A stretch of DNA of 62,544 nt, filler included, from Jimgerdemannia flammicorona (taxonomy: Eukaryota), in assembly GCA_003990765.1 (NCBI GenBank). It is 3 parts of 3 records of this genome, joined end to end, with 100 filler letters (N's around TTAATTAATTAA, not from the genome) between each part and the next. Parts side by side here need not be neighbours in the genome. Positions count along the whole stretch, not along the records: positions 41,773 to 62,544 come from RBNJ01001591.1; 2 more parts are not named here. One strand, given 5' to 3'. Each line of letters opens with the position of its first letter. Position 1 is the first letter of the stretch. Of the stretch, positions 14,539-62,544 are shown one piece after another. Made by a program: the position numbers and the translations under genes. Under the pieces are notes generated by a model. The model did not search any database, was not told the origin of the DNA, and saw nothing but the letters and a program-made list of their open reading frames with translations.

Positions 14539-14549
14539 TCCTTCCCCCC

Positions 14550-23126: not shown

Positions 23127-23170
23127 GGTTTCAGCCCTTACCAAAGGGCCTCATCAGTGCCCAGACCGGC
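23127..23170 (-). ncRNA. Degenerate type III hammerhead ribozyme motif
   Basis: GCCGGUC-UGGGCA-CUGAUGA-GGCCCUU(UGGU)AAGGGCU-GAAA-CC. The core and stem II are intact, stem I has collapsed, and stem III has only 3 bp. Confidence 0.6.
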
Positions 23171-23750: not shown

Positions 23751-24126
23751 ATGTCCGATTGAAAGATAACTATCGTTAGATATATCATTCCAAGTATTCA
23801 GTGCATTCCTTTTTGGATATCAAGTCCAACGCCATCAACCGAATTGTCTTCCCCTCCCCTTCGTTTCATCCACCGGAAGGGATATCATACCCCTGAGTAC
23901 CCCGCCACATACCCTCTTCCACACCCTTGAACTCATTCAACCTGCCGGCTCAAATTATCTCCGATATCTGCACCAGAACCACCATACGGCTTCATCCCAG
24001 CGCTCAGATCTCTTGGCGATAAACCTCCGAGTGTACCGCACCACGCCTACTCCCGCGTCGCGATTCAGATCTTTTTTCCCCTTACCCCATCGACGGTGAA
24101 ACATTTCACCCGAATCGGCCTCCTGA

Positions 24127-25760: not shown

Positions 25761-26126
25761 TCACTCAAATTCCCAGGCTTCTACAATTTGTATTTCCTTA
25801 TACTGTGAGATTTGTATCATTACATTCTTCCAATGTTGTCTGTTGACATATCCAAAGTCTCCTGGAGTTACTCCTTGGAAATGGGCTATGGCTGACTCAT
25901 CATCTTTGAATAACTTGTGCACTCTTTTTGCAATTGTGATCTGAATATAGGAGAGCTGACATTCTCTGATCCAGTCTTCTTTTCCCATCTTCGGTCTTGA
26001 ATTCAGTAGCTGTCCCAACTTGAAGTATTCCTGGAACTCAGTTTGGTTCTGGTAGGCCTTGAAATGTAAGATTCGTGATAAGTGTGTTTGCACTATACTC
26101 TGGATACTGTCAAAGGATTCTTCCAT
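25761..26126 (-). CDS. B1 3' accessory ORF, 121 aa, open; distant homologue of the A/D accessory protein
   Basis: QEYFKLGQLL..IAKRVHKLF..AIAHFQGVTPGDF aligns with QEYEIGNLL..TAKKIHQIF..LIPNLEYVRVSDF; located between integrase and PPT. Confidence 0.7.
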   Translation of the reverse strand: MEESFDSIQSIVQTHLSRILHFKAYQNQTEFQEYFKLGQLLNSRPKMGKEDWIRECQLSYIQITIAKRVHKLFKDDESAIAHFQGVTPGDFGYVNRQHWKNVMIQISQYKEIQIVEAWEFE

Positions 26127-26202
26127 TGTTGGTGGCTCAGTGGAACACCACTGTCTTTCAATGGCTCACTGGGCTGTACTAGTAATTCTGAGGGCAGTAG
26201 TA

Positions 26203-27405
26203 TTACTTTGTTGACTGGTCATAATACTTCTTGAGTTGGTTTCAGTAGATGGTAGTGGAGATGATTGTGCCTGAGAGTTTTTGTAGCCAAAAGGTGGTTC
26301 CTTTTATATCTTGCACAAGGTAAGGTCCTTCCCACTTGGGCTCCAGTTTTCATGATCATGAGGCTTCTACCATGTTCCAATACATCAGGACTTTGTCTCC
26401 TATCTTGATAATCTCCAGGAGTTTGTGGGTTTTTTCTGCATTCTTCCATTATAGTGCCTGTGCCTTCATTATGTAATCCTTAGCCTTCTTCCTGATTTGG
26501 TGTAGTCTCCGTATTTCTCCATCCACATATCTCCATATAGCATCTCCATTGGATGATAGGATTTCTCGAGAACTTTCTTCTCTGAACAGCATCTCCCAAG
26601 GGGTAAAGTGGGTACTTTGTGATCTGATATTCTGGAGAGCAGATAATGCTATTGGCAAATAGTGATCCCAGTTTTCATAGTTATCACAGATCTTGGCGAT
26701 AACATTCTTAAGGATCTTGTTGGTCTTTTCTGCTTGTCTGTTTCCTTGAGAGTGATAGGCTGTGGTCCAAATGTACTGGATCTTATACTTCTTGTAGAGA
26801 ATCTCAAAGAACTGGTTCATGAATTCTGTTCCTCTATCTGTAGTTACTTGCATTGGGGTCTTGAACCAGCAGATGATTTCTTTGTGGAAGAAATCAGCGA
26901 TTGACTGTACATTGGCTTCCTTGAGGGGTCCTGCTTCTATCTACTTTATAAAAAGGTCTACAATGACAATGATATATCGGTTACCAGTCAGGGTCAAGGG
27001 TAGAGGGCTGATTACATCCATTGCTATGTGGGCAAATGGTACTGGTTCTATATGTACTGATCCTGGGGCTTGGTTTTGTTGGTCTTATTTCTGTTTCTGG
27101 TATTTGTTGCAGGTTCTAACAAATTGTCTGATATCTTTATCCATTCCTGGCCACCATATCATTCTTCTTGTCTTGTTGTATGTATTTATTCCTCCTAGAT
27201 GACCGAGTTCATATACTGATTTCATTGCTTGCTCCTTCTTGTGTTCTGGTATGACTAGTAGTTTTCCTTTCTTCAGTATTTGTCCATCAGTTTTGAATTG
27301 TTTCCATGTTCTGTTAATAATCATTTGTGTCTATTCTTCCAGATATTGGAGCATCTTTTGCTGTCTCAGATATATGATGATTTCATAGTAAAGTTCCTTA
27401 TTCAT
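26203..27405 (-). pseudogene. B1 integrase in its own reading frame (MNKELYY...; decayed HHCC, DDE core, GPY tail)
   Basis: The ATG at 27405 overlaps the RNase H-frame stop (CATGAATAA); TDRGTEF and KWEGPY motifs. Confidence 0.85.
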
Positions 27406-30400: not shown

Positions 30401-31382
30401 TGCTGATCTCTTGTAGAGTTCCTTGCAAACATTCTTCTTGGTAGTCTGAGCAGGATAGGCCTCCCATTCTTCTTCATCAGAATCTCCAATTTCCTCGAAG
30501 GTAATTGTATTGGCCTGCTCCTTGTTTCATATAGCATTGCTTGGTTGAGCCTTGCACTTGGTTTCGCTCATACATTCATAGGAGTAGTGGCCTTCTTCTC
30601 TACAAGTATAGCAGGTGCCTTTCTTCTTGTCTGAGGTGGCAGCAAACTTCTGGACAGGGTGGCAGTCTCTTCCTCTGATCTCCTTTACTATATTCTCCAA
30701 GTGGGCAGCCATTTCTACAAACCTCTTGGTAAGTTTCTCCAAAGGATCACTGTTCTTTTGCTGCTCTGTAGCTTTGGGCTGAGGTGTATTTTGATTGATC
30801 ATTGTGGTAGAGATCACACTGGTTGACTTAGGTGCCTCAACTCTGACTCCTGTAACTCTCTCCATTGAATGGTCTTGTGGGTGTCTGGCTATCCAGTATC
30901 ACTGAGCATAGGTGACCTTCTATAGCAGATCCAGAATCACTAGTGATGAGCGGATGGCCATAGCTATTTCTGGGTGGACTTCTTTCATAAAGGTTGCTTC
31001 AGCTACTTGATCTCGGATAGCAGCAGCATAATCTGCAAGAATTATCTGATATCAAATTCTGGTATAGAATGTGTTTGGATCCTCACTCATTCCTTGGTAT
31101 GTTGTGTTGAGCTGATCCTTCAGGGCTTACTTGATCTCATCTATATAATATGTATTTCGGAGCCAGGTCTTCTGTGCTGTCAGTATAGCATTGGCATCAT
31201 TTCCTGCATGGGTTGCGGCTATGAATGCTGCTCTGGCAGGACCTCATAGGCTAAAGGGCATGAGGGCTACTTGCTGTGCTACTGTCAGGCCTTACAGCAG
31301 CATACTGCTCGAAATCATCAATGAAGGTAATGATTGATTCATCTGAGGTATATCTATGGAATACTGGTGATCTCATATCCAT
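27398..31382 (-). pseudogene. B1 gag-CCHC-PR-Cys/His module(29462-29560)-dUTPase(~28915-29340)-RT-RH
   Basis: CYTCREEGHYSYEC; IINTGAG; TRSSL, GEVIDSDYTGEI, DRLAQ, RGKKGFRST; SPWSSPVV, YVND, TDAS. Confidence 0.9.
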
Positions 31383-31966
31383 CTTGTCTGGGTATTGGGG
31401 CTTGGTTTGTATGGTTGTTTAGGTAGGGGTAGTTGTTCATTATTCAGCTTGAAAGTGAGGGATTCATCTTGAATCACTAGCCAATGGGCACCAAGTTATA
31501 ATATAGTGGACACTTACTCTTGAAAGTATGTCAGATTTCTGTATCTTGAAAACTTGACTGTTCTGACTCTTGTAGAGTCTCTTGAGTTGCAGGGGAGAGT
31601 GGGTGAGTTAGAAGTATATCTGTCCACAGACTTACTAGTTCCTTTGCTATCTCTTTGCTTTGAACTATTTCAATCTGAGGTTTATTCACTCTAAGATACT
31701 GGGTTATTTATACAAGTTTTGCTAACTATAAGGTGGCTAAGTAATGGCTCATTTTATAAGTGTTGAATCTTTTAACATCTGCTAAGATTTTGCTGATCAT
31801 GAAGATTTTAACATCTCTTAAATCTTTGCAAATGTTAAAGTTTCTGCACTTTGTGGAATGTGGCTACTATTTATGAGGCTAAGCTATATTGGGAATCAGA
31901 TTTAGATACTGCAATTAAATATCTAATTCCCCTATTTCATGTTACTAATTTGGATCAGCCATCATA

Positions 31967-34900
31967 ATAGATATACCATTTAGTTATAGTCTTAAATATA
32001 TTTAAATACTCTTTATACTAAATATATTATAACCTCAGCTCTACTTTCTTTGAATATAAGAATAAAGTAGTATTCTTATTACAGAACTCTCAGATCTGAC
32101 TTATTAATAATTCTGAGCCTAATCAACTTGAAATACAAAGATAATACTTCTATTAGTATAAGAACAAAGTAATATCTGGGCTCTGCTATAATAGATAATT
32201 AGAACTCAGTACTTTCTTAAAAACTTAGAGCTTAGGACCAATAGTTATTATTGACTATTTATAATATATTAATTCTATTAGTATATAGTTTTATTATAAT
32301 TTAGTAGTAATGAAGTTACTCTTTACTCATAAGCAATCTTTCCTTTAAAAATTTATTATAGATAATCAGAACTAGTCAATATTACTAATATTATTAGTAA
32401 TAGTTAAGAAGTATTTTCATTCTGAATATTTCTAAAACTTAAGCTAAAGAATCTAATAGAATTATTACTAAGTATACTAAAACTCATACTAACTAAGAGA
32501 AGTTTGACAAACTCAACAATAAAATCATTTAAGAAGTATTTAATATATATCTTCCTTATATTTAACACAGAAGTTCTATACTACTGAACTTAAGGAGGAA
32601 TTCAATAAGTTAATTAATAGCTACTTTTATAAGAAATATATATAAGAATCCATTGAGACTATAAGTGAATATTTTCTGAATCTTCTCTCAATAATTACTA
32701 TTATAAATCCAAAATCTTTCAGAACTATAAGAGATATTATATCTATTAAAAGAAATCTCACTTCTATTATTGATTTCTCTATATATAAGTATGAATAATC
32801 TAGTAATAAGAACTACAAGCTATTATATCTAGTGAGACTTCTGCTATATTATCCAAACTTAGAAAGATAATTAAAAAGATATCTGAACCTAATATTAGTA
32901 GTCTCAGTACTATTATAAAACTACTATTAAGAATATTAAGTCTATTAAAAATCACAGCAGATCTAATAGTTACCTCATCAAGACTACTAATCTATAAGCT
33001 TACTTATCTTAGTAATATTATAGAAAAGTCAATACTAAATCACAATCAATATACTATAATAATAGAAGAAAGACCTCAATAATCTTACTAAATAGATAAT
33101 AGAGATAGTAGAATAATATCTATAAATAATAAAATAGTAGTACTAGCTGAGTTCATCTATTGATTAAATGTAGTTCTTCATATAAGAATCTCATTCTAGA
33201 ATCAGGAGAAATGATTATCTTCAAAACCTTTGTATTATCTGACTTTAGAATCTTTTCTTCAAATCCAATGAGGATATAAAGAACCTAGATATAGAAGAAT
33301 ATATATTTCTTAACAAAATAAACCCTGTATACTTTTAAGTAATTAATCAAAGCTGAAAAAGTCTCATCCTGTCAAAATAAACTATTATAGACTATCTGGT
33401 ACCCTATCTCAATCAGATATATAAAGAAGTTTATAAACTAAACCTATTGAAAAATAGTAAAAGTCTTAGAAAAAAGAAAGAACCTCTCTATAATTCAGAA
33501 GAAAGTAAAGTCTTTTACCAATATTTGAATCTCAGTAATAGTAACAACTAGTAGAACTTCTTCATAAATACTAAGATATCTTTACTACAAACTATAGTAT
33601 CTGCTATATAACTCAATATACTACTATAGCATAAATATAGAAAATGCAATATCTATTCAGCAGAAGCCTTATAGAATACCTCATTATCTAAAGATATTTA
33701 AGAAAGAATACATCTAGAAACTCTTAGACAATAGAGTCATCTAGCCCCTGAGCTAGTTCTATACTTATTATATCTAAGAAGAGAAAATAAAGACTCTGTA
33801 TAGATTACAGAAAGCTCAACTTAGTTACAGAAAAAGATATCTACCCCTTATCCAGAATTGACTAATTACAAGATATCAGATACTTCTATAGTATAGACCT
33901 TTTTACAGAATTTTACAAAATCTCTATAGATTTTAAGGATATTTGGAAAACAGTCCTTCTTATCCTAAAAAAAACTGTTTAAATATCTCTAAATATTCTT
34001 TAGACTCTATAATATACCCCCTACCTTCTAGAGAATAATGAACTCAATCTATGGTCCACTTAATACTCTAAATGAGTCAATTTAAATCAGTTTAAATTCA
34101 TCATATGATCAATTCAAATCAGTTTTAATTCAATTCAAATCAGTTCAAATTCATTACATGATCAATTTGAATTGCCAAATTCAAATCTCAATTCAAATCA
34201 CTAAATTTATATTATATAAATCTTAGAAATAAAGCACAATATCTCCATGAATATTCATCCAAATTCAATGAAATAAACTGTGCTGTATTCACCTGATTAA
34301 GGGCCTTTCAGAAATATAGGGTACACTGAATTTGGACCAGTATTCATAGAGAAACTTAACAAAACATCCATAGGTCATAGTTGAGCCATATTCTGTAAAT
34401 ATTTTTGTTGATTTTCTTTATGAATACTGGTCAAAATTAAATGAAACCTATATTACTGAAAAGCTTTCAATCAGGCGAATACAGCACACCTTGTTTTGTT
34501 GAATTTGGATGAATATTCATAGAGATATTAGGTGATTTATATTGATTGTTTTGGTTAATTATTATTTTTTCCAAATTAGGATCCAATTTGAATTGATTCA
34601 AATCTGATTCAAATTCTATATAACTAGATTTGAATCAGATTCAAATCTGTCCAATTCAAATAAGATTTGAATCACACTGACTTGTTTGGAGCACTAGATA
34701 TACTGATCTGCTACTACTTGATTATATATATATAAGTTAATACTATTATAGATCATCTATATATATTCTGTCTTTTATATCTCTCTGCTCAAACCATACT
34801 ATAATAGTCTACACAAGTACTCAAACCAGACTTCTCACCTCTTTTAGTTAATAGTTATATTAAGTATAAAGTTGAGAAAATTCTTACTAAATATATATAT

Positions 34901-39075: not shown

Positions 39076-41672
39076 TGTGATGGTACAGCCAAATTTGGAA
39101 GAAGGAAATAGGGAATAGATACTTGATCACACCTAGTCCCAAAGTATTATAGCCTTATAGTTAGCAGTCCTTGATTTCGACATTGTCTAAATTTTGGACA
39201 TTATCCAAATCGAACACCCCAATTTAGTTTAGCATTTAGATATTGTCCAGATGTTTCGACAAAAGTCCAAATGACTCATTTATTACTTAAGCCACCCTCT
39301 CATAGCTAGCAAACTTGTATAAATAACCCAGTATCTTCGAGTGAATAAACCTCAGATTGAAATAGTTCAAAGCAAAGAGATAGCAAAAGAACTAGTAAGT
39401 CTGTAGGCAGATACACTTCGAACTCACCCACCCTTCCCTACAACTTCAAGAGACTCTGCGAGAGTCAGAACGGTCAAGTTTTCAAGATAAAGAAATCTGA
39501 CATACATACTTTCAAGAGTAAGCATCTGCTACGTTATAACTTGGTGCCCATTGGCTGGTGATTCAAGACGAATCCTTCACTTTCAAGCTGAACAATGAAC
39601 AACCACCACTATCTGAACAACCATACAAACCGAGCCCCAATACCCAGACAAGATGGATATGAGACTGCCAGTATTCCATAGATATACCTCAGATGAATCA
39701 ATCATCACCTTCATTGATGATTTCAAGCAGTATGCTGCCATAAGGACTCTGATAGTAGCACAGCAAGTAGCCCTCATGCCCTTCAGTCTACGAGGCCCTG
39801 CCAGAGCAGCATTCACAGCTGCAACCCATACAGGAAATGATGCAGATGCCGTACTGACAGCACAGAAGACCTGGCTCCAAAATACATATTACACAGATGA
39901 GATCAAGCAAGCCCTGAAGGATCAGCTCAACACAATATGCCAAGGAATGAGTGAGGACCCAAACACATTCTATACCAGAATTTGATATCAGATAATCCTT
40001 GCAGATTATGCTACTGCTATCCAAGATCAAGTGGCTGAAGCAACCTTCATAAAAGGAGTCCATCCAGAAATAGCCATGGCTATCCGCTCATCACCAGTGA
40101 TTCTGGATCTGCCACAGAAGGTCACCTATGCTCAGCAATACTGGATAGCCAGACACCCACAAGACCACACAATGGAGAGAGTTACAGGAGTCAGAATTGA
40201 GGCACCCAAGGCAACCAGTGTAATCTCCACCACAATGATCAATTGAAACACACCTCAGCCAAAAGCTACCAAGCAGCAAAAGAACAGTGACCCTATGGAG
40301 GAACTCGCCAAAAGATTTCCTGAAATGACCGCCCACCTGGGAGACATGGTAAAGGAAATCTGAGGAAGAGATCGCTGCCCAGTTCAGAAGTTTGCTGCCA
40401 CCTCAGACAAGAAGAAAGGTACCTGCTACAGCTGCGGAGAAGAAGGCCACTACTCCTATGAATGTATGAGTGAAACCAAACACAAGGCTCAACTAAGCAA
40501 TGCTACACGAAACAAGGTGTAGGCCAATACAATCACCTTTGAAGAAATCAGAGAATCCAATGAAGAGGAATGGGAGGCCTATCCTGCTCAGACCACCAAG
40601 AAGGATGCTTACAAAGAACCCTACAAGAGACTGCCAGGAAGACCCAAGAAGAACCTAGTGGAAAAGTGGATAGAAACTGACACAGAAAGCCAAGGACCAA
40701 TTGGCACAGATGTTGATCTTCCCAATCATACAGCCAAGGATCATAGAAGTCAAGAATCTGGAGGAAACAAAAAGAGGAAAGAAAGGATTCGGATCCACAG
40801 GAAAAGGAGTATTCGCCAGCACCAAGATCACTGAACTTGAGCACAAGAAGGAGGAAAACACAAGCAAGTACAGTTACACTATTGGAGATGAATTCCCACT
40901 CAAGGAGGAACTCAAGAAAATACTCCACAAATTCAAGGATGTCCTTGCCACAGATTTCAAGGATATTAAGGGAAAGACCCCACACTACTATCACAAGATA
41001 GATACCAGAGACACCGAACCAATTTACCAGAAGGCAAGACCTGTCCCGCCAGCCTACCGAGAATGGCTCAGAGAAGAAATCAAGCAGATGGAAGAAGCCG
41101 GCATCATCAAAGAAGCCAGCAGCCCCTGGTCTTCACCAGTTGTACTAGTCCCGAAAAAAGGAAGCAAACCTGGAGAATTTGCCCCAAGGCTCTTTGTTGA
41201 CTACAGGAAGCTCAATGCAGTTACCAAGAAGGATCGCCAACTACTGCAGTGACATCCTTATAACACTGGGAGATGAAGCAGAGTACTACAGCACCTTGGA
41301 CTTATACTCAGGATTTCACCAAATCAGACTCACAGAGATGGCAAGTGAAAAGTCAGCCTTCATCACCCCAGATGGAACCTACATCTACCTACGAATGCCA
41401 TTCGGAATGTGCAATGCACCAGCAAGCTTTCAGCAAATGATGAACAAAATCTTCCACTATGACATGGAAAGGTAGATGATGGTCTATGTCGATGATGTAA
41501 TCATCTACAGCAAGACACCTGAGGAACATCTGCAGCACATACAGCAGATAATGGAGAGACTAAGACAATATGGCCTTTATATCAAACCCAAGAAGTGCAA
41601 GTTTGCAGAAATCGAGATCTCCTATCTTGGCCATATCATCAATCGAGATGGAACACACACGGACCCCCTCAA
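39076..41672 (+). mobile_element. Family B copy B2 with internal deletion, truncated by gap
   Basis: LTR 39076-39538; PBS from 39542; gag from 39653; CYSCGEEGHYSYEC; gag joined to the dUTPase C-terminus at ~40693; RT YVDD. Confidence 0.92.
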
Positions 41673-41772
41673 NNNNNNNNNNNNNNNNNNNNNNNNNNNN
41701 NNNNNNNNNNNNNNNNTTAATTAATTAANNNNNNNNNNNNNNNNNNNNNNNNNNNNNNNNNNNNNNNNNNNN
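41673..41772. other. Artificial contig linker / gap
   Basis: N44-TTAATTAATTAA-N44. Confidence 0.97.
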
Positions 41773-43311
41773 GGGTCCACCAATGCGATCCTCCTTCCCG
41801 ACTCATCCCACTCCTCCTCCAGGACATCAAGAAGCTCCTCCTCACCTCCGACACCTCCCGGTACCCCATACTGCGGCTGTACTTCGACGCTCATCTCAGC
41901 GTCCTCCACCACACCGCCCTGCCCTCCTTCCCCACGGACCTCTTGGGCCACCCTTTGATCCACTCTGGGCTCTCCAGCCCAGTCACTTTCCCTCGATCCT
42001 ACTCCACTTCCTCCCACTCCACCCCCCACTGCGCCTCCTCCCAATTTCTCCAGCAGCTCCTTCTGAATACGCCTCCCCTACATCTTCTCCCAAGTTCCTC
42101 GATCCATCCTGATCTTCTTCCCTTCTACAATTTCCACCACCGTCTTGGCCTCATACTCCTTCCAAGCCAACCGTCTCCTCTCGACAGCTCCCGTCAGATC
42201 CTCAAGAGCCTCCAGCAAATCCTCCTTTTCCTCCAGCATTCCTTTCACCCGAGAGACCCTGCACTCAACTGGTCCCCATTTCAGTGTCGCCGGCCAGTCC
42301 CTCGCCTTCCCCATGTTCTCCTGACCAAATAAGCGTACTCTTACATCAACGTCTCCAGTCCTAAGTTCCGTACCCTCCCAGACTTTGAACCCGATATCGA
42401 TGACATCCCCATACTCCTTGACCACCTCTACAATCAACTCCCTAGCCCTCTCCCGCGACACTGTAGGAAGATCCAGCACCGTCAACTGCACCACTCTTGG
42501 GTCCCAGCGCATGCACCTCGCCATAGGAACTACCACTCCACCCACTACTACCCCTTTCTCTATAGCCTCCAGCATCGACACCTCTTCTTCAAACCCAACC
42601 TCAATCCCTTCCTTCCCCTTCATGAACTTGACCGTAGTTGCCCCCTTCACCTCCTGCGCCACCAGCCCCAGAATCATTCTCGCAGTCACTGCCAAGCCTC
42701 GGAAATACAATGTGACCACGAATTCTGACCTCGACTTTTTGAGTAATGGTGCTGACACCATGCCTATCACTCCATCAGCCAGGTCCCCGGGCCTCGTGCC
42801 CTCCTTCTGTCCGGATCTGCCAACCACCGTCACATCTGGATTTTTTTCCAGATTCCCTGTCACAGCCCCATCAACAGTCACATCTCCAACCCCTACTCCC
42901 CCTCCCCCCATACTGATTGAGGCTCCCATGGGGGATCCTCCCTGCCCTCCTGCTGAACCCGGCATCGCCTTCCCCAGTCCCAACCAACCATCCAGCCCTG
43001 TGGCCATCTTCCCCATCCTGACCTTGTCAGCAAAGGTCGCCCTCCCCCCACCTCTCTGCCTCAGTCCACCTCTCCCTCCACCTCCAGCGCCACTGCCCAC
43101 CACAGACGGCCCTGGCATTCCCAACCCATCTCCTCGTTTCCTCCCAACCTGCTGCCAGTCGAAGGCACGGCTGCCCCCCTGGCCAACCTGCCCACCAGTT
43201 TGCTCATTGCTCACCATGTTGATAGTAGCTTTTCACCAAAAACTTCGCAGAAAGTATTGTCCAAATCTTGTGTCACCTGAATGTTACCAAAGGAAGTTGT
43301 CATCAAAACTT
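41773..43311 (-). mobile_element. 5' end of an L1/Tx1-like LINE: short 5'UTR and ORF1 (ATG 43217; open 379 aa, continuing past one TAG)
   Basis: Homologous to the ORF1 that precedes the APE ORF at 2724-5804; Gly/RGG-rich N-terminus; abuts a B-type LTR fragment. Confidence 0.75.
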
Positions 43312-49940: not shown

Positions 49941-50428
49941 ACATATGATAAAATCAGTCTTTAACTGTATTTGTGACTATTACCTGTATGTGGCAGAATA
50001 CCCCCTTCTACATGACGTCAATTTCAATTTGGATTCTTGAGAACTGTTCGCTTATATTTATTATATAAAATAAACCCATCTCATACTCATTTTAGACATT
50101 TGATTTACACATATTATTTTGAGATTAATAACTTGATACAGTTAATATAAAGAAAATATAATTAGTATAGATAAAATCATTATATATTGTAATGGTGACC
50201 CCAGAATGATGACATCAGCACAGAAGATGGCCTTTTCTTGCAAGCCACCAGATTGGAACACAAGAAGATCATACAGCATATGAGATGAGCAATGATAACC
50301 AACTTGAGTCATTGTGATCACAGTACAAGTATCCTGAAGAATATAAAAGAAGGATCAAGGAACTGCAGTAGCAGCAACCAATAAGAACCACTAATCCCAA
50401 AATAGCTCAAAGACTTACCACAAATGAA

Positions 50429-51250
50429 ATGCCTGCTGCTTGCCAAACCTCAAGGTCAAGGAACCACCAAGGTATCTCAGTCAAAGAAAGGATGTTCCAA
50501 GACATCAGAAGAGCCACGAGGACCCACTCAAGAAGGACTCCTAGTATCAACCTGAATACTGCAGACCTCTATCACTTTATCCTCTACCACCATGAAATAG
50601 AAACAAGGATCACCATTGCTACTGAATACCTCTAAATGTAGCAGAAGTATGAAATAGGAAACCTCCTCTGCTGGGAGTTCCCACAGGCCAGCACTCAAGA
50701 GCTACAAGATGCCACTCCTATAGATATATGTGAAATAAGGACAGCTAAGAAGATCCATTAGATCTTCAGACATGCACCATGGTTGATCCCCAACTTGGAG
50801 TATATTAGAGTCTCAGATTTCAGAGACCCATCATCCTGCCATATTAATGCACTAGAAGCCAGAGTGGCTACAGAAGCCCAGTCTACTATCACCCTCAATA
50901 GTGATGAAGTAGAAGACTTCTGGCACCCTATCCTTCAGGACAACCCAGACCAATTCCTACAAGAGTTGATCTCAGTATTCTAAGACCCAAGCATCCGGAT
51001 TAGATCTTCCCAAGACCCCACATTTGTCTCCTATTTTGTAGAAGAGAATCTCATAGACTGGAGAGCTCCAGATCTTATTCTCGATTTTTCTGCTGCCGAA
51101 CGTGATGACATCATTGACAATGATGTTGTCCTGTGCAATATTGAAGTATGCGAAATATGTGACCTATATGACAAATTTACAGATCTCATCTCCTTCAGTG
51201 ATGATGATGATGAGGATAAAGCCCCCATGGTCCTAAACTTTCTGCTCTAA
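50429..51250 (+). pseudogene. LTR-encoded accessory ORF, 273 codons, 5' LTR copy
   Basis: One frame from ATG to TAA, broken only by stops; TATAAAAG ~85 nt upstream. Confidence 0.8.
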
Positions 51251-51784
51251 GTTCTTTGTTATACTGGATAATGCCAGCATCAGTATTCTGATATGATACT
51301 GAATTATACCAGCATCCTGAACCTGTACAATCATCAGTACTGACCCTGGAACTTAGTAGTTTTAGTTATTGAAATTTATATTTAGCTTTATATCTTAGCA
51401 ATCATTAAATTATATTTTATATAAATACCCCTCTTATTTCCTCTGAAATAAAGTCAGTCTTCTCAGTACAATATACACACTTCCTTACAAGCAATCTAAG
51501 AGATAACAAGACAGTTAAAAATAAGAAGTTTGAGGACTATAAGATCTTGAAAAGGCACTCCAATAAGAACTTGCTTATAACAAACTTGAGTTAGTCTAAG
51601 AGATATATCTTGAAGAGAATCTGGCATATTTGAAGGACTCAGCGACCACTATGTGACAACTTGGTACCCATTGGCTGGTAATTCAAGATGAATCTCTCAC
51701 TTTCAAGCTAAAAAATGAATAACCCCCACAACAACTACCCTGACTACAAGAGTCACCCCTGCAATAATTCAAGATAAGATAGAA

Positions 51785-54700
51785 ATGCATTCCCCCACAT
51801 TCTATAGATATACTACTGAAGAGTCAATCCTGACCTTCATTGAAGACTTTGAACAATTCGCCACCATACGAGCCCTTGGTGTGGATGCTCAATTGGCCCT
51901 TCTACCAGTCAGTCTCAGAGGACCTGCTAGAGACAAGTTCAATATAGCCACCATTGCTGATGCTGGTGCAGCCAAACTTACCAACATGAAGGCCTTCTTC
52001 AGAACAACATATTATACCAAAGAGATCAAGCAAGCTCTCAAGGATCAACTCAATACTATCTGTCAGAGACTTAGTGAAGATCCCAACTCATTCTATACCC
52101 AAATCTGCCACCAGATTATCTTGGCTAGCTATGATGATCACCTCAAGGAACAAATAGCAGATTCAACTTTCCTCAAAAGAGTTCACCCTGAAATTGCCCT
52201 AGCAATCTGGTCTACCCCAGCTACACTGACCCTTGATCAGAAAGTGGTCTTTGCATAGAGATATTAGACTGCCAGACACCCTGCCAAACACTCAATGGAG
52301 AAAATAACTGGCATCAAGATGGAGCCATTAAAGCCAACTAGTATCTTACCTACTACAGTTGTAAACAGACAACCAACACCACCTACCCCCAAGACAGCCA
52401 AAGCTGACCCAGTGGAAGAACTCGCCAAGCAGTTCACTAAGATGACTACATACCTTGGTGATGTTGTTAGAGAGGTCTGAAGCACCAACAGGAGACCAGT
52501 GTAGAGATATGCAACTGCTACAAAAGAATGCAATATCGCATGCTTCAGATGTGGAGAAGAAGGCCACTATGCAAAGAATTGCATGACCAAAACAAGATGC
52601 AAAGCCCAACCAAGCAATGCTAACAGAACTAGAGAACAAACCAATACAGTAGTCATTGAGGAGATTGGTTTCACTGATGATGAAGAATACTATGAGGAGC
52701 TTGAATTCTACTCTGCTACTGAAGGTACTAGAACCTGGTCCAAGCCCTATGACAAGAAGAGCAATAGCAAGCTAGTTGGAAGACCAAAGAAGACCCTAGC
52801 TATCACTATTCAAAGCAAGACCCAACTCGAGGAGATTGATCAAGACATGGAGTTAGATGAAGCTACCTGCCAAATCATTGAAGGCACTACTCCAGTCTCA
52901 GGAGAAAGTGAAAGCAAGAAGAAACAGAAGCTGTGCAAGATCAAGATCCACCAGTATGACATCTACAAGGATCTCAAGGAATAAAAGGTCAATGCTACCT
53001 TTGGACAACTAGCCGAAGTCCCTGCCTTCAGATAGCAGTTGAGAGTAGGACTTACAACTACTACCAAGAATCAAGAGTACAAGATTGTAGAAGCTCACAA
53101 TGTACAGGAAGAATCTGAGAACTCAAGTGAAGAATCCAAAGACCAGCACAAGACATCAGCCTATATCTCATGTCAGATCAAAGACTATATCTTTGATGCC
53201 ATCATTGATACCAGTACTGGAGGATGTCTCATGAGCAAGAAGGCAATTGACCACCTAGGTTGAGATATTGAAGAGTCCACCAAGATGGTCTATATTATAG
53301 CAGATGGTATACAAGCTACCCCCCTTAGCAAAATCCAAGAAGTCCCCATCAAGATAGGAGAAGCTACCATCTCAGTAGATATAATTGTTACAAGTGCCAC
53401 CAACTATGATATCCTCATTAGCAATCAATGGCTTCACAAGGCCAAGGCCATCATTGACCTCAATGCCCAGAAGATGCAGATCAACTATAGAGGAAGAAAG
53501 GTACAAGTCTCTATCAATGTCTATAAAGGAGTTCTACCAGACATAGAGGAAGGAGATGAAGAAGATACAGAGGTCTTCATGTACTTAGTGAACAAGAACA
53601 AGAACAAGACACCTAAGCTCACAGATGAGCTGTGGTACAACAAGATCATCGATGGCTATACCCCTCAAGGAAGATGCCCCCATGATACTAGGATGTACTA
53701 CTCTGAACACCTGAATGACTGCTGGTCCTGTATCAGTGAAGTCAGGAAAATCTGCCAACAGAAACACAAGCAAGAAACTGCTGAAGCAAAAAGGAAAGCT
53801 GAAGAAGATGACCAGCCCCCAGAGCTCCAAGCTGACAGTGATAATGAGGAGAAACAAGAATCAGACATCACTCTCAAGGTCAAGAAGTTTCACCCCAAAG
53901 CCAAGATCCCAGAATATAAGACTGAAGGAGCCATAGGAATGGACCTTGCCAGTATTCAAGATGCTACCCTCGAACCACAGACCACTACTCTACTTGGCAC
54001 TGGAATTGGAGTCAAGCTGCCAGAGAACCCTGCCAGAATTATCAAGACCAGGAGCAGTCTGGCCAAAAGTGAAATCTCAGTTGAAGGAGGAGTAATTGAT
54101 CCTGATTACACTAGTGAGATCTTCCTCATAGTCAGAAATCACAACCACACCACCCCCTTTGAAGTCAAGAAGTATGACAGGATTGGCCAGATGCTGATCC
54201 ATGAAATCAAGAAGCCCAAGATCATTAAAGCCATCAAACTCATCAAGACCAAGAGAGGAGAACAAGGCTTTGGATCTACTGGAAGAGAAGTCTATACTAC
54301 TACCAATATTACCAAACTCAAGCACAAGAAAGACAAGGACCAGAACAAGCACACATATACCATTGGAGAAAACTTTCCTCTGGAGGAACAACTTCTCAAA
54401 ATCCTGTACTAGAATGAAGAAGTACTTGCTATGGACTTCAGGGATATCCACAATCAAGAACCCAAGTACTACCATGAAGTTGACACTGGCAATATCAAGT
54501 CCATCTACCAGAAAGCCAGACCCATACCGTCTGCCTACAGAGAGTGGCTGTGAGCAGAGCTCAAGGAAATGGAAGAAGCCAGGATCATCAAGCAAGCTAT
54601 CAGCCCCTAGGCCTCACTCATTGTCCTTGCTTTGAAGAAAGGAAGCAAGCCAGGAGAGTTTGCACCAAGACTCCACATTGACTACAGGAAGCTCAATGCT

Positions 54701-55793
54701 ATCACCAAGAAGGATAGGCAGCCCTTACCAAATATTCAAGAAATCCTTACTATTCTTGGAAGTGAAGCCAAATACTACACCACCTTGAATCTGTTCTCAG
54801 GCTTCTATCAGATTGATCTCACTCAAGATGCCAGTGAGAAATCAGCCTTCATCATACCTGATGCCACCTATATCTACCTATAAATGCCATTTAGAATGTG
54901 CAATACCCCAGCAAGTTTCCAGCAAATGATGAACAGAGTCTTTAGCAATGAGATTGGAAAATGGCTCTTTGTCTATGTTGATGATGTGATCATCTTCAGC
55001 AACACTGCACAGGAACATGTCAATTATATACAGCTAGCCCTCAAGAGGCTCAAGGAGCATGGCCTCTATATTAAGCCCAAAAAATATAAGTTTGTAGCTC
55101 AAGAAATCACCTACCTAGGACACCTCATCAATCAGACTGGAATCCACACAGACTCCATAAAGATCAAGGCTGTTGTAGTCTACCCAAGACCCAGAACAAC
55201 TACAGAAGTCCATGCCTTCCTTGGACTGACCAGTTACTACAGAAGATTCATCAAAGAATACTCCACCATTGCAGCACCTATCTATGAGCTACTGAAGAAG
55301 GAAACCAAATTCGAATGGACCAAGGAGCACCCAGAAACCTTCAATGAACTCAAGACCAGGTTGACTCAAGCACCTATCCTCAGAAGACCAGACTGGAATC
55401 TAGAATTCATCCTGCAGACAGATGCGAGTACTATAGAACTTAGAGTAGTCCTAGCTCAGAAGAAAGATGGACATGAATATGTCATCTCCTATACAAGCCA
55501 AGGTACCTGTAGAGCAGAACACTTGCAAGCTTAAATACTTAGCAGTAGTCTGAATAGTAGACAAGTTCCACTACTACCTAGCTGGGAAACACTTCACTAT
55601 TCAAACAGACCACTCTGCTCTCACCTGGCTATTCCACACTCTGAACCCCAAAGGAATATATGTCAGATGGATCTACAGGCTGCAAGAATATAGCTGTACT
55701 GTTAAGCACTGCTCAGGAAAGACCAACACCAATGTCAATGCACTCTCAAGGATACTCTGAAACACCCTCATTAAGACTATTCAACATGAATAA
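51785..55793 (+). pseudogene. D gag-CCHC-PR-Cys/His module(53633-53731)-dUTPase(~53870-54283)-RT-RH
   Basis: CFRCGEEGHYAKNC; IIDTSTG; GAIGMDL, TRSSL, GGVIDPDY, DRIGQ, RGEQGFGST; YVDD; TDAS; small copy-specific deletion near 55520. Confidence 0.92.
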
Positions 55794-56931
55794 AGAGCTA
55801 TACTATGGATTAATCAGCTACCTTGGGCAGCAGAAGATGCCCAACCACCTCGAACCCTGGATAATCAATATCATTAACCAGACTTGGAAACAGTTTGAAC
55901 TAGACAATACTACACTCAGAAAAGAAGGAAAGCTGGTAATACCTGAATACAAGAAGTATCAAGTAATGAAGGAAGTATACAAGCAAGAATACTTAGGAGG
56001 AACCAACATATATAACAAAGCAAGAAGAACTATGTGGTGGCCCAAGATGAAAGAAGACCTATGCCAATTTATTAAAGGGTGATCAAGAATTGAGCCTATC
56101 CCCTTCCACCACATTGCAATGAATATCATTGGACCACTACCAGTAATACTATCAGGAAACTGTTATATTATAGTTATTATAGACCTCTTCACCAAATGGA
56201 TAGAGGCAGGAGCATTACAAGAAGCCAATGCCCTCTCTATAGCCGACTTCCTGTACCGAGAAATCATCTACTGCTACAAGACACCAAAGCAAATCACAAC
56301 AGACTATAGAATAGAATTTGTCAATATATTCCATAAGATAATATATCAGAAATACAAGATCCAGTACATCAAGACCACTGTGTACTACCCTCAAGGAAAT
56401 AGACAGACAGAGAGAACCAACAAGACTCTCAAGAACATCTTAGCAAAGATCTCAGAGATATATGAGAATTGGGATAACTATCTCCCAACTGCCCTCTCTG
56501 TCCTATGAGACATATAGTCACAGAGCACACACTTTACCCCAAGAGAGCTACTCTTCAGAGAAGAAGATTCTGATGGAACCTCAGCCATGAATCTAGACCT
56601 AACTTGGAGATGGGTTGATGCAGAAATCCAGAGACTATACCAAATCAGGAAGAAGGCTGAAGATTATATCACCAAGTTACAAGCACTGACAAGGAAGAAT
56701 GTAGAAAAGAATTACAAGGCCCTAGAACCCATCTGAATTGGAGAAAAGGTTCTACTGTATCGAAATATGGTAGAAGCCTCATGGTCATGAAAACTGGAGC
56801 CCAAATAGGAAGGACCCTTCTATATGCAAGATATCAAGGAAACTACCTTCTGGCTTAGAAAAATCTCAGGGACCATACTGCCTACTATGGTACATAAGAA
56901 CAGACTTAAGAAGTACTACAAACCTATATAA
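55786..56931 (+). pseudogene. D integrase in its own reading frame
   Basis: ATG at 55786 within CATGAATAA; MNKELYY..; IDLFTKWIEA; K*EGPF tail; no chromodomain. Confidence 0.85.
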
Positions 56932-57537
56932 GAGAAGCAAAATATAATGACTGCCCATGAGGTTCTAGTCTATGAATCATAACAGCATGTCCCATGACTA
57001 GTAGGCTATCTGTCTGGACCATTCTCTAAGAGATACAGCACTGGCAACTACTCATCTATGAGACTTTCAAAGTCAGAGGAGTTCAAACCATCAACTGATT
57101 GGTCAAGATCAGAATCAGGCCCTTGCTCTATATGAAGAGAGTGACCCTTCACCATCATGCCAAAATACAAAGAGAAGATGCCAGCCCATAAATATCACTT
57201 TTTGACCCCTTGCCAGAGGTTATGAGATCAGCAAATTTTTCAGGACTGGACTAATGAATAAGGATGCTCAGGAAGATCCTTATTCAGGAGGAAGATGTAA
57301 TGGTGATTCCAGAATAATGACATCAGCATAGGAGATGACCTTTCCTTGCAAGCCACCAGATCAGAACACAAGAAGATCATATGGCATATGAGATGAGCAA
57401 TGATGACCAACTGTGAGTTATTGTGACCATAGTACAAGTATCCTAAAGAATATAAAAGAAGAATCAAGGAACCACAGTAGTAGTAACCAACAAGAACCAC
57501 CAATCCCAAAATAGCTCAAAGACTTACCACAAATGAA

Positions 57538-58359
57538 ATGTCTACTGCCCACCAAACCTCAAGGTCAAGGAACTACCAAGGTATCTTAGTTGAAGAAAGG
57601 ATATTCCAAGACATCAGAAGAGTCATGAGAACTTACTCAAGAAGGACTCCTAGTGTCAACCTGGGTACTGTAGACTCCTATCACTTTATCCTCTATTACT
57701 ATGAAATGGAAATAAGGATCACTATTGCTACCAAATGCCTCCAAATATGGCAGGAGTATGAAATAGAAAACCTCCTCTGTCGGGAGTTCCCACAGGCCAG
57801 CACTCAAGAGCTATAAGATGCCACTTCTATGGATATACATGAAATAAGGACAGCTAAGAAGATCCATCAGATCTTCAGGTATGCACCATGGTTGATCCCC
57901 AACTTGGAGTATGTTAGAGTCTCAGATTTCAGAGACCTGTTATTCCATCATATTAATGCACTAGAAGTCAGGGTGGCTACAGAAGCCCAGTCCACTATCA
58001 CCCTCAATAGTGATGAAGTAGAAGACTTCTGGTACCCTATCCTCCAGGACAACCTAGACCAATTTCTGCAAGAGTTGATCTCAGTATTCCAAGGCCCAAG
58101 CATCTGAATTAGATCTCCCCAAGACCCCACATTTGTCTTCTATTTTGTAGAAGAGAACCTCATAGACTAGAGAGCTCCAGATCTTATTTCTGATTTCCCC
58201 ACCACTGAATGTGATGATGTCATCACCGATGATGTCATCCTGCGCAACATCAAAGTATGTGAAATGCATGACCTATATGACAAATTTGCAGATCTCATCT
58301 CCTTCAGTGATGATGATGACAAGGATGAAGCCCCCATAGTCCTGAACTTTCTACTCTAA
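57538..58359 (+). pseudogene. LTR-encoded accessory ORF, 273 codons, 3' LTR copy
   Basis: Same length and frame as 50429-51250; its stops fall at different codons from those in the other copies. Confidence 0.8.
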
Positions 58360-58370
58360 GTTCTTTATTA

Positions 58371-58470
58371 TACTGGATAATGCCAGCACTAGTATTCTCA
58401 TGTAATACTGGATAATGCCAGCACTGGTATTCTCATGTAATACTGGATAATGTCAGCACTGGTATTCTGA
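58371..58470 (+). repeat. 35-bp tandem repeat (about three copies) in the 3' LTR of D
   Basis: TACTGGATAATGCCAGCACTRGTATTCTCATGTAA at 58371, 58406 and 58441; single copy in the 5' LTR. Confidence 0.85.
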
Positions 58471-60429
58471 TATGACACTAAATTATACCAGCATCCTGAA
58501 CCTATACAACCATTAGTACCAACCATGGAACTTAGTAGTTTTAGTTATTAGAATTTATATTTAGCTTTATATCTTAGCAACCATTGAATTATATTTTATA
58601 TAAATACCCCTCTTATTTTCTCTGAAATAAAGTCAGTCTTCTCAGTGCAATATATACACTTCCTTGCAAGCAATCTAAGAGATAACAAGACAGTTAAAAA
58701 TAAGAAGTTTGAGGACTATAAGACTTTAGGAAGGTACTCCAATGAGAACTTGCTTATAACAAACTTGAGTTAGTCTAAGAGATATATCTTAAAGAGAATC
58801 TGGTGTATTTGAAGAACTCAGTGACCACTACGTGACAATATGCAATTATATATAATAATAAAGATAATTGATATATTGAGCTATATGTATACTTCTGAAA
58901 TCTAAGCTACATATTTATTTATCCTTGAACTGAGCTATCAGACTCTCATAATACTCTTCTTATATAACTATTATTGTTCAGCTTACTAGCAATACTAATG
59001 TGATGAGAAAATTTAAGAGTTATTTAATATTATTATATCAGAGCAAGTAGAAGAGCTTATGTATAGATATTTGTTAAAAAGTGAGCAAAGATACAGAAAT
59101 TATCATGAAATATTTCAAATCACTGTAAAGTATCTCTTTTTCCATACCGAACTCTTTCTCCAAATAGTCTCAAGCAAGAATCCACCTCTCTCTATATGTA
59201 CAATCTCACTCCATACAGCTATTAGTATCACAATTGCCTTATTGCTCCATCACTCCAATCACTGTAGATGTACTATTTTAAACTGTACAAATGGAGCTTT
59301 GAAGAGAAAAAATGATGTACAAAAAGTAACCACCTTGCCACATATGCTTCAATTTTATGAGGTTTTTCATTTCCAACCTCATTAATAGATGTTGAGCAGG
59401 GCCCGTTGGATCAGATAAATATATATATTGAGTTTCTGTTAGCAGAGGTACAGTCAGAGGGTCGCTTCATCTAGATGAGATGACGCAACCATGTTGATGA
59501 AATACGAAATACGTTTTAGACGAAAAACATTAGAGATCTTCTATGGCAATAGCTGGGAAAACCCCAGAAGCTCACGAAACTCTCTTTCTGACTGCTAGTG
59601 GAGCATCCGTCTGCCACACACGAACCCCGTACGCAACGTCAAGCGCCAATATCTGGGTATTCTCCACCCTTCCCCCCCATACAAATCCCGTCCTCCCACT
59701 AGGGCGTTGTGGATATCTTCTTGATGACAGGTATGTCACTCCAAGACAAATCATCCTCCGCTGCCAACCCAGAATCCTCTGGTGCACGACGAACCTAATA
59801 GATTTCAAGGTACGAACATAAGTAAAGACCTGGAGAGCAGTAAAGATAATTCCCACGTTTCATATTGTGCTTGTCGAGGGTGTTTGCTGGGTTGTTGCTG
59901 GTTTCCATGACGTCGTTTGGTTGAGTACAGTGATGAAAACATTGAACATCACGAGCCAAAACAAGGTGAATGCTTGGGTCGCACGATGGGTAGCAGATCG
60001 AGGTAGATAAGCAGCCATAGATTTGAGTTTCAGTGAGCCGTGGCTGTAGATTATGCGACAATGCCAAAGGATGGCAGTGTATATGTCAAAATAACATCTG
60101 ATAGGCATGGAGTCACCTTTCCTGAAACTCTACTGTACTGCACCAAAACTCCTGAAGGCATCGTCATACCTCCAACCCCCATGCAATTCTGACCAATTCG
60201 TTTGAAACCAATCACTTATCTCTTCATCCCCCAAGCATGTCGTTGCTCAGATCACTGAATGGCCCCATCGGAAACTCGGGCCGTCTCAAACGTATGAGAC
60301 GCACGACACCGCATGGCACATTCTCGCTGCAGGACCACCTTCAGTCAATGACACATAGCAAGAGTTTGTGCGTTTTCCCACGACAATGAAAGATGGGTTG
60401 CGTGCAGACGGATAGGTATTTCTACAGAA

Positions 60430-60485
60430 CCGGTTTCGCCCTTGCTTAAGGGGCTCATCAGTTGGTTTATAGCAACCAAGACCGG
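60430..60485 (-). ncRNA. Type III hammerhead ribozyme, intact core
   Basis: 5'-CCGGUC^UUGGUU(GCUAUA)AACCAA-CUGAUGA-GCCC(CUUAAGCAA)GGGC-GAAA-CCGG-3'. All core nucleotides and three Watson-Crick stems are present. Confidence 0.9.
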
Positions 60486-61193
60486 CATAAGGAACCGGTC
60501 AAAGTAAAGTTAGTAGGTGTTTTGAATTTCGAAGATTATACAAGAATCACTACGTTGATATGAAAATACTTATCTACATAGAGTATTTAACAAACGTAGA
60601 AGCGCTAGTTGTAAGGGCGTAAGCCCCAATTCAGTGCCTTACAATGGTGCGGCCCTAGTTGGTTCGGGTCAAATGTCCAATAAAAGCCAACAGTAGCCGA
60701 CGCAGCACGGATGGGGGACGGCAACTACACCTCGAAAACTGCTGAGTTTATGCATTCATATGGCCTCGACAAGGAAATCGGCTACTCTTTGGTTTGAACC
60801 GACGAAAAAAAAAAAAATGACGTCACCCAATTATCAACGACTAGTCCAGTTTTTGAAGCCTGGAAGAATGTTTTGTGGGAAACTGAATCTCGTGAGCGAG
60901 CTGGTAAGAGGGAGAGACTGGTGGAGAGGGTAAAAGTGGATGGAGTCTCATCATCACCGCAGTGACAGCTACCTTGACCGTGAGTCTAAGCGCGATGGCC
61001 TCGATCGGGGTGTGCTTTGTGTGGGATGGATTGTTGGAACACTGACGCATCGGAACATGGGATGGCTCGCCCGACACCCCCGTTGAAAACTTTTCCATTT
61101 GCTCGTTCCTATGCCATGACTAGTGGGCTCAATGTAGTTCACAAAATATTATGCTCCTTAATAACGGCCGCTTGGAATTCCACGTGTATGTGT

Positions 61194-61368
61194 ATGGTCG
61201 AGTTGTAACCACCTCCTCCTCTCTACAACCACTCCCACACAAACCAGGAGGTCGCCATTGTCTCTGCCCGTCGGCTGCTTCAACAGCTTGCTCAAGGAGT
61301 TCTCTGTTATACAACACGGTACCATTGCCTCCAGGCCTGCCATAAATAGAGCAGGTGACGTGGTTTTT

Positions 61369-61417
<49 letters not shown>

Positions 61418-62441
61418 AAAAAGGGGGGTGAGGTGTGGGAGGTCCTAAGAGGGTGACTTGGCGATTTCATTTCATATCTAATTAATTGATTGATTGCTTT
61501 TCTTGTAATCATCTTCAATAGGCAGGCCGGACAAGGACAGTCGCCTGCGAGGCAGGTGATTATTGGTCTTGCATTCTCATCCCGATTTTTGCCTACGATC
61601 ACACATCACGCCTAATCAATCAACATCGCCGTGTTGCGCAGGTTGACCTGTCGCGACAGAGACCACCACCATCAACAGGGTCTGCGCGTCGGGCATGAAT
61701 GTCATCTCGCTCACCATACAGAACCTCCAGGGGTTGCCGGCGGGATGGAGGGCATTGCGTCGTGAGTGGTCATTAATTGGGGCACAGGGAACGTGTTCTG
61801 CCTACCGAGCCAGGCGCGAGCTGAGGCCGCAGGATCGTATTTTTTCTAAAAAAAAAAAACTTATAAAAAACATCTGTGGAACGCAGAAACTATGTCTGGC
61901 GTAACATCTATGTCCACGAGCAGCTCACTGACTCCATTATCAAGGACGGACTGTGGGGTGCGTACAATCAGTTTCAGCAAGTATGGGTGGTAATGATTGA
62001 AGAACTGTTGTGTGGAAACAATGGCAGCCCTCGGTGTCCACAGTGATCGAGATTCTAACAATCATGTTGTCATCATCTCCAAACCTATTCATAAGTGTAT
62101 ATACATATTATTTTATATATTTTTTTCCTCCTCTTTCCACCCCGCGTTCTGATCATGCTGCTTTATATCTCTCCTCTCCCTCTCCCCCCCCCCCGACACA
62201 CAAAATGAAAGGGTAATTACACCGAGAACACGGCTGCGAAGTACAAGATCATGCACGCCCATGTCATCGAGTCATACCGGGGGAGGTGAAGAACGGCCTG
62301 TTCAATGTCAATTGTACCCGTCACTATCAAGGACCAAAATGGGGAACATTGTGGGCAATTAATGTCAATGAAGGCGGGGAATACAAGAACGTATTGATTG
62401 AAAAAATCCCCGATCTGAAGACCCGTATTTCAAATGGATGG
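61194..62441 (+). pseudogene. Spliced acetyl-CoA acetyltransferase (thiolase) pseudogene, N-terminal ~60%
   Basis: Exons in order: QEVAIVSA/VGCFNSLLK..AINRAG|GT; QAGQGQSPARQVIIG; TTTINRVCASGM (catalytic Cys motif)../VAGGME; DSIIKDGLWGAYNQF; GNYTENTAAKYKI..IESY..IVPVTIKD..EYKNV..EKIP. Many frameshifts and small deletions. Confidence 0.88.
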
Positions 62442-62544
62442 TGAATTCTGGAGGATGGACAAGTTCGCTTTACAAGAGTATCGAATTCTTCTTATGGAGA
62501 ATGTAATCGCTGCAGCCAGTTGCTGCTTTTTTTTTTTTTTAACA

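Follow-up and report, generated by a model that had tools for sequence, protein, structure and literature searches.

A permuted hammerhead ribozyme in Jimgerdemannia flammicorona, probably derived from the Chlamys-type Penelope-like family of retroelements

How does a hammerhead ribozyme with every part of its catalytic structure in place come to lie by itself, in DNA that bears no sign of the mobile element from which it might have come? The question is raised by a motif on the minus strand of a 62,544-nt stretch of the genome of Jimgerdemannia flammicorona (GCA_003990765.1), here called the window, which joins three parts of three records and along which all positions are counted. An earlier note, made from the sequence alone, had described this motif (hereafter copy 1) as a complete type III hammerhead with a competing hairpin, perhaps standing apart from the retroelements to which hammerheads are usually tied. 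We find that copy 1 is a real, structurally complete hammerhead motif, and we consider it probable, though well short of certain, that it is a retroelement-derived, permuted hammerhead of the Chlamys-type Penelope-like family, which is solitary, non-coding and probably inactive in its present context. It is read here as a non-autonomous or truncated remnant and not as a host gene.

The minus strand at 60486-60429 contains all the hammerhead core bases and three helices of 6, 4 and 6 bp, helix III being made up of five Watson-Crick pairs and one G-U pair. All the invariant positions are present, namely CUGAUGA, GAA, the A15.1-U16.1 pair (60434/60481), an H17 at 60480 and the G10.1-C11.1 pair (60454/60438), and the sequence agrees with the earlier placing of the cut between 60480 and 60479. 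Loops close helices I and II and helix III is open, which is the type III topology; the helix sizes of the type I hammerheads of Penelope-like elements and retrozymes also fit, with A-CCGG-U at 60434-60429, but the open helix I of that type is absent, the downstream bases pairing at two of six positions in the window row of the alignment described below. As an isolated 60-nt RNA, the motif has the hammerhead as its minimum-energy structure (-18.6 kcal/mol), and a minus-strand transcript, if made and if the hammerhead folds, should by this prediction be cut after C60480.

A custom type III descriptor (helix I of at least 4 bp, helix II of at least 3 bp and helix III of at least 4 bp) finds a single site in the window, which is copy 1, and at its loosest setting finds none in 80 million bases, on both strands, of first-order Markov sequence of the window's composition; hence, the motif is not a product of chance. 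What speaks for a chance match to the hammerhead consensus is the Rfam score. The Hammerhead_3 model (RF00008), which the earlier note had put forward as a check, does match 60485-60430 under permissive thresholds, with an E-value of 5.8e-05 on 601 bases and of 0.0061 for the whole window against 4227 families, but its 32.0 bits fall under the gathering score of 48.5, and at the gathering level the window has no Rfam match. Set against this are the empty random sequence, the extension of the similarity to relatives beyond what the core demands, into loops and helix I, and a second copy in the same window (both below), and we regard a chance origin as exceedingly improbable.

The nature of copy 1 is best seen from its relatives. 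Scanning metagenome contigs with a pattern made up of the core, the helix II stem and GAAACCGG returned 59 loci, most of them unrelated hammerheads that satisfy the pattern. Five of the loci (L002, L011 with two copies, L014, L036 and L051), all type I, have loop 2 as in the window bar one base; a scan of genome contigs added a sixth type I locus (L060), a more distant member is seen in L043, and a scan of viral contigs gave no matches. The window loop 2 agrees at eight of its nine bases with the loop common to these six loci. In the relatives the elements follow one another as helix I 3' strand, CUGAUGA, GCCC-loop-GGGC, GAAACCGGUC, helix I 5' strand and GCUGG, and helix III is a single pair capped by the palindromic loop CCGG. 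By blastn, L011 matches 60429-60465 at 36/37 positions and 60471-60485 at 15/15, in permuted order, with the L011 15-mer standing after the ribozyme and its window counterpart before it; L002, L014 and L036 match 60429-60462 at 33/34 identity. The GCU that follows helix I is also shared with this environmental type I family, the halves of which stand in the opposite order to those of copy 1. An alignment of seven rows (the six type I loci, representing four independent type I lineages, and the window) supports helix I by covariation: both sides change in five of the six pairs, and 89.6% of the cells pair, against 27-46% with the partner slid by 1-3 columns. Copy 1 has UUC after ACCGG where the relatives have UC, and the downstream helix I strand is missing from it; conversely, no CCGGTC occurs within 45 nt upstream of CUGAUGA in L002, L011, L014, L036, L051, L043 or L060.

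These relatives lead to the Penelope-like elements. Two open reading frames (ORFs) enclose the hammerhead in L014 and L036: some 250 nt before it stands one with the YMDD region of a reverse transcriptase (RT), and some 150 nt after it a coiled-coil-like one. Nine longer relatives of the RT fragment are known from the search, and an N-terminal GIY-YIG match was found in all five that were scanned, three of them above the Pfam cut-off; the order of N-terminal GIY-YIG and RT is that of the Naiad/Chlamys clade of Penelope-like elements, as described by Craig et al. (2021; PMC8557442). In File S2 of that paper, the hammerheads of Chlamys-2_cBra and of Chlamys-5_cBra from Chara braunii carry the module gaa-ac-cg-gt-c, which is GAAACCGGUC. 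The Chlamys hammerheads, published as lying close to the element's 3' end, thus share with the window the core and the helix III and cleavage module. They differ in being type I with an open helix I and in the sequences of helix II and loop 2, whereas in the window the substrate strand lies upstream, helix I is closed (type III) and there is no element ORF. The loop 2 of the window family was not found in the incomplete, line-wrapped text of File S2, a negative that shows little. Judged by its sequence, the copy 1 hammerhead belongs to the family of Penelope-like element hammerheads.

A second layout, that of non-autonomous hammerhead repeats, is seen in L011 and L060, where the motif occurs in head-to-tail tandem units of 530 nt and 394 nt, respectively, as in the tandem type I repeats of the metazoan non-LTR (long terminal repeat) retrozymes (PMC7229834); a link of such retrozymes to Penelope-like elements has been proposed (bioRxiv 10.64898/2026.07.22.740005). 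The window differs from these in having no tandem array at copy 1, by Tandem Repeats Finder and by a repeat search. With relatives that, in contigs of other eukaryotes, either adjoin a Penelope-like ORF or form tandem repeats of 394-530 nt, the idea that copy 1 stands apart from the usual retroelement ties finds no support. Two observations on the tandem loci may be recorded here. L060 is a 523-nt contig in an actinobacterial whole-genome record and consists as a whole of 1.3 units of the 394-nt repeat with its eukaryote-type hammerhead, which suggests either that the bacterial assembly is contaminated or that a small element, circular or tandem, was assembled with an overlap; an Rfam alignment of it as a type III hammerhead (28.5 bits) was rejected for several non-canonical pairs. 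The 530-nt unit of L011 also gives, at 468-644 and 998-1174 on the minus strand of the contig, a weak match to the plant signal recognition particle (SRP) RNA (22 bits; gathering score 105), which hints at a putative SRP/Alu-like module in the hammerhead repeat.

The permuted order of copy 1 gains its meaning from what is known of short-helix hammerheads. In the hammerheads of metazoans and Penelope-like elements treated by Cervera and de la Pena (2014; PMC4209133), helices I and II have 6 and 4 bp and helix III only 1-2 bp with a palindromic loop of 2-4 nt; the authors argue that tandem copies of such motifs work as dimers and that single copies, the majority in genomes, probably stem from truncated elements, and they report that a helix III that mimics the dimer in a single motif led to some cleavage in vitro. 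On this literature view, because helix III of the relatives is weak, tandem copies pair their palindromes with one another. In the window, the substrate half (CCGGUC and the helix I 5' strand, UUGGUUGCU) stands upstream of the enzyme half with a 6-nt loop between them; helix I, 6 bp without a mismatch, forms with the upstream strand, and two ACCGGU palindromes pair as the 6 bp of helix III. Copy 1 therefore shares with the dimeric hammerheads the 6-bp helix I, the 4-bp helix II and a palindromic helix III built from two copies of the palindrome, but here the palindromes are 46 nt apart and no second ribozyme copy is needed. On the modelled structure, the fold that in the relatives is formed only between two copies is present here in cis, with type III topology, and by analogy copy 1 looks like a natural counterpart of the single-motif construct of PMC4209133.

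Is this order an accident of one locus? A family covariance model (R1), built from the type I relatives alone with the window left out, scores copy 1 at 42.6 bits, over model positions 23-62 only, and finds a second locus (copy 2) on the same strand at 23101-23180 (15.7 bits; E 0.0035 by a rough calibration), which matches copy 1 over 40 nt at 80% by blastn. Copy 2 runs GCCGGUC (23170-23164), the 6 nt UGGGCA, CUGAUGA (23157-23151), helix II GGCCC/GGGCU with an 8-nt loop, and GAAACCC; it has no helix I, and its helix III 3' strand is mutated. From its sequence we take copy 2 as a decayed copy of the same arrangement, which would make the permuted order a property of a spreading element rather than a one-locus accident. 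Further copies of the catalytic half may lie elsewhere: a public run has two contigs whose matches are confined to 60429-60462 and to 60429-60460, with one or two differences and set in other flanks; they are consistent with such copies, and the consensus of the run reads past 60429 has an agreement of 0.65, too mixed to assign them to type I or type III. The two public runs (shares 0.07 and 0.06) cover only 60429-60462 and 61041-61350, and the uncovered parts are not evidence either way.

We propose that the ancestor was a type I motif with a one-pair helix III that would have acted as a dimer of tandem copies. A tandem or circularised unit would then have lost all that lay between its two helix I strands, either by deletion or by a jump of the reverse transcriptase across the base of helix I, with mobility presumably provided by Penelope-like enzymes. 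The outcome would be a monomeric type III hammerhead that has the dimer-type active structure in cis.

Whether this structure would form at its present location is another matter. The competing hairpin of the earlier note is confirmed, with 60500-60494 pairing with 60486-60480 over 7 bp, and this hairpin is in the minimum free energy (MFE) structure once upstream bases are added. In contexts of 85, 141 and 251 nt, its pair probabilities are 0.94-1.0 against about 0 for helix III, and the best hammerhead-containing fold lies above the MFE by 8.3, 6.5 and 10.1 kcal/mol, respectively; in all three, helix I has pair probabilities of 0.79-0.97 for five of its six pairs and of 0.40-0.64 for the pair adjacent to the cut. 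The 8-nt direct repeat that had been reported is also borne out, with ACCGGTTC at 60499-60492 and 60434-60427. The only two sites of ACCGGT in the 62.5-kb window are those flanking copy 1, with a third CCGG module between them, and all three CCGG modules lie within 74 nt. A transcript that includes 60494-60500 is predicted not to cleave, by an energy model that ignores the tertiary contacts of hammerheads. The third ACCGGU upstream would form its 7-bp hairpin with the cleavage-site strand earlier in transcription, and far more stably; because the hairpin is transcribed first and is much more stable, the genomic copy 1 would most likely be silent as a ribozyme unless a transcript starts downstream of 60494.

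The same hairpin could act as a switch, and this is at the heart of another reading, in which copy 1 is a domesticated ribozyme, that is, a riboswitch-like processing element of a host transcript turned on and off by the upstream hairpin. The two mutually exclusive stable folds would suit such a role, and so would the intact core and three helices, the keeping of three CpG-containing CCGG modules while transposons lost their CpG, and the location of both copies in CpG-intact islands. Yet three copies of one palindrome give rise to the alternative hairpin automatically, so that neither selection nor an adaptive explanation is needed; copy 2 is decayed; and around copy 1 there is no gene model on either strand, a Pfam search of 23 of the 50 stop-to-stop ORFs of at least 45 aa at 58700-62544 giving sub-threshold noise only. 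We hold domestication to be quite improbable.

A blocked fold also recalls the LTR retrozymes of plants: plant hammerheads are for the most part isolated motifs or solo LTRs, and in the predicted retrozyme RNA the hammerhead takes a blocked conformation (Cervera et al., 2016; PMC4918200). Copy 1 could accordingly have come from a plant-type LTR retrozyme mobilised by gypsy elements, as a solo LTR or as a fragment: it shares the type III topology, the isolated occurrence and the blocked predicted conformation, and gypsy-type elements are abundant in the window. However, there are no LTR-size direct repeats around copy 1 and no second hammerhead within 400-1000 nt, the other copy being 37 kb away in window coordinates. 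The 12-nt tRNA-iMet primer-binding motif has four matches in the window with at most two mismatches, against 6.4 expected by chance, and all four are on the other strand and none near either copy. Moreover, the relatives of copy 1 are type I motifs that adjoin a Penelope-like ORF, and its Rfam type III score is well under gathering. The window thus departs from the plant LTR retrozymes in repeat, partner copy, primer-binding site and kin, and this origin appears distinctly unlikely.

Several points weigh against the Penelope-like derivation that we favour. The relatives came from a pattern of our choosing, by which the helix II stem and GAAACCGG were fixed; the matches independent of that pattern (loop 2, the CCAA before the core, UUGGUU and the following GCU) are nonetheless ample for homology. 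None of the family motifs reaches an Rfam gathering score. The nearest-neighbour energies leave out tertiary contacts, so that 'blocked' is a prediction. No Penelope-like RT or GIY-YIG remnant was found in the window, the best tblastn match with the nine relatives as queries having an E-value of 0.93 and the best profile match among 1879 six-frame window pieces one of 0.7. Copy 2 is borderline, the unlikelihood of its upstream GCCGGTC arising by chance is a back-of-envelope estimate, and the two copies have flanks that align for no more than about 60-90 nt. Finally, both copies are in CpG-intact islands, and every recognisable transposon here is CpG-depleted; this setting suits host-like or young DNA no less than old transposon debris. 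Three weak tblastn matches near copy 1 (E 2.4-9.3) were not collinear and were treated as noise. Partial tandem copies of the pseudo-LTR type were not seen either, 58800-62544 sharing only homopolymer runs with the rest of the window, and tblastx and blastn between the two CpG-intact islands recovered the hammerhead core and homopolymers only.

The earlier note had also thought of the direct repeat as the trace of a tandem or circular unit, and the permuted order does fit this, though there is no array here and none of the tests made points to a free small RNA. In its fullest form, this idea makes copy 1 one-and-a-bit units of a tandem or circular hammerhead element of about 55-65 nt, a 'mini-retrozyme' with ACCGGTTC as its terminal redundancy, which would multiply when reverse transcription runs for more than one unit along an RNA that has cleaved itself and closed into a circle. 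From a circular or tandem template the permuted order would follow; the direct repeats are 65 nt apart and lie at the sole two ACCGGT sites of the window; the catalytic half is seen again in a public run, in different flanks; and more-than-unit copying of circular RNAs has been proposed for Penelope-like elements (PMC4209133). A suggestive parallel is offered by L007, L012 and L032, AT-rich eukaryote-like contigs with type III hammerheads in head-to-tail units of about 90 nt, whose arrays end in a partial extra unit that stops at or just after the cleavage site, the end that copying of a small circular RNA over more than one unit would be expected to leave; L013 is a similar AT-rich eukaryote-like contig with a single type III motif. 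Against it, the redundancy is only 8 nt, the bases before the first repeat are unlike the end of the unit, copy 2 has no such redundancy, and a circle of 55-65 nt would be far below the 150-1000 nt given for retrozyme RNAs in the literature consulted. We see this origin as unlikely, and retain the derivation from a Penelope-like family hammerhead.

The window is rich in transposons, and the surroundings of the motif (Table 1) bear out the description of copy 1 as lying in CpG-intact DNA outside transposable elements. The CpG observed/expected ratio is 0.81 at 59400-61350; the LTR elements have 0.07-0.23 and the AT-rich stretches 0.0-0.02, and the 3.7 kb around copy 1 is repeated nowhere else in the window except for homopolymer runs. 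CpG content is sharply bimodal, with islands at 20900-24700, 41500-43000 and 59300-62544 (about 14% of the window) at 0.6-1.1 and values of 0.0-0.4 elsewhere. LTR elements and stretches of 23-30% GC are alike CpG-poor, and many 1-kb segments are without any CpG. With no depletion of CAG/CTG (1.4-1.7), the loss is specific to CpG, and such depletion of CpG without that of CHG argues against typical land-plant methylation decay. As to the claim that no RT, Penelope ORF or LTR lies nearby, there is indeed no Penelope-like ORF, but an LTR element of the gypsy type ends a short way from copy 1. Among named organisms, the gypsy polyprotein has its nearest relatives in plants and green algae (32-60% identity); the closest full-length relatives and the dUTPase-bearing ones are environmental proteins.

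Other features of the window stand apart from the hammerhead. On the plus strand, 61647-62290 holds thiolase-like fragments, in which Thiolase_N is matched below threshold at 61647-61904 and the frames are broken on reading; this appears to be a decayed gene piece within CpG-intact DNA. The segment 61041-61350 is near-identical in two unrelated public runs, one of them labelled as a soil metagenome, in which otherwise only the hammerhead core is found from 59500-61350, and it may be a multi-copy or conserved element. At 2000-6000, the plus strand is markedly G-rich and C-poor, with a GC skew of 0.44-0.48 over about 4 kb and an RT fragment inside it at 3630-4118 (RVT_1, E 1.4e-13), which looks like strand-biased mutation of a retroelement. 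Two pairs of 44-base N runs lie at 20798-20898, next to an LTR end, and at 41672-41772, inside a CpG-richer stretch.

Table 1. Positions of the parts of copy 1, of its competing hairpin and of other features of the window
Feature	Position	Strand	Basis or remark
Upstream module GACCGGUUC	60500-60492	minus	Sequence
Competing hairpin, 5' arm GACCGGU	60500-60494	minus	MFE structure; pair probabilities
Competing hairpin, 7-nt loop UCCUUAU	60493-60487	minus	Fold
Linker CUUAU	60491-60487	minus	Sequence
Helix III, 5' strand GCCGGU	60486-60481	minus	Sequence, fold, descriptor; with C60480 also the 3' arm of the competing hairpin
Cleavage-site C17	60480	minus	Predicted cut between 60480 and 60479
Helix I, 6 bp: UUGGUU, loop GCUAUA, AACCAA	60479-60474 and 60467-60462	minus	Sequence, fold
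Core box CUGAUGA (C3-A9)	60461-60455	minus	Sequence, Rfam alignment
Helix II, 4 bp: GCCC, 9-nt loop 2 CUUAAGCAA, GGGC	60454-60438	minus	Sequence; G10.1-C11.1 pair
Core GAA	60437-60435	minus	Sequence
Helix III, 3' strand ACCGGU	60434-60429	minus	Sequence, motif scan; A15.1 at 60434
Trailing bases UC	60428-60427	minus	Sequence
Copy 2, decayed second copy	23170-23120	minus	Family model, blastn, alignment
Gypsy-type LTR element	50188-58838	plus	LTRs 85% alike; ends 1.6 kb from copy 1, which lies outside it
Gypsy-type LTR copies with dUTPase in polyproteins	8000-12000, 13755-20798, 26000-32000, 40700-41250, 50188-58838		

What, then, does this locus add? Hammerheads of Penelope-like elements and retrozymes, a palindromic helix III and solitary truncated copies have all been published (PMC8557442; PMC4209133; PMC4918200); these ties are well described and no new class is opened here. 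A type III member of this lineage with an upstream substrate strand was not found in a non-exhaustive search of the literature, in the texts as far as they were accessible. The value of the finding lies in its form, a short ribozyme that the relatives carry as a dimer-dependent type I but that occurs twice in the window as a cis type III, and it offers a concrete natural example of a change of topology within one hammerhead lineage. It also provides a ready-made test case both for the idea of a dimer conformation in cis and for control by a competing palindrome. Such motifs score under the Rfam gathering level, and a family-specific model recovers decayed copies that the general model misses. 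More broadly, the genome studied here may contain a family of tiny dispersed elements whose type I hammerhead, dimer-dependent in Penelope-like elements, has been permuted into a self-sufficient type III, with the upstream palindrome as a switch keeping genomic or monomeric transcripts uncut; we offer this as a speculative and rather doubtful extension. If true, such a family would be a natural intermediate on the way from the type I hammerheads of retroelements to the monomeric type III hammerheads of retrozymes and viroid-like RNAs.

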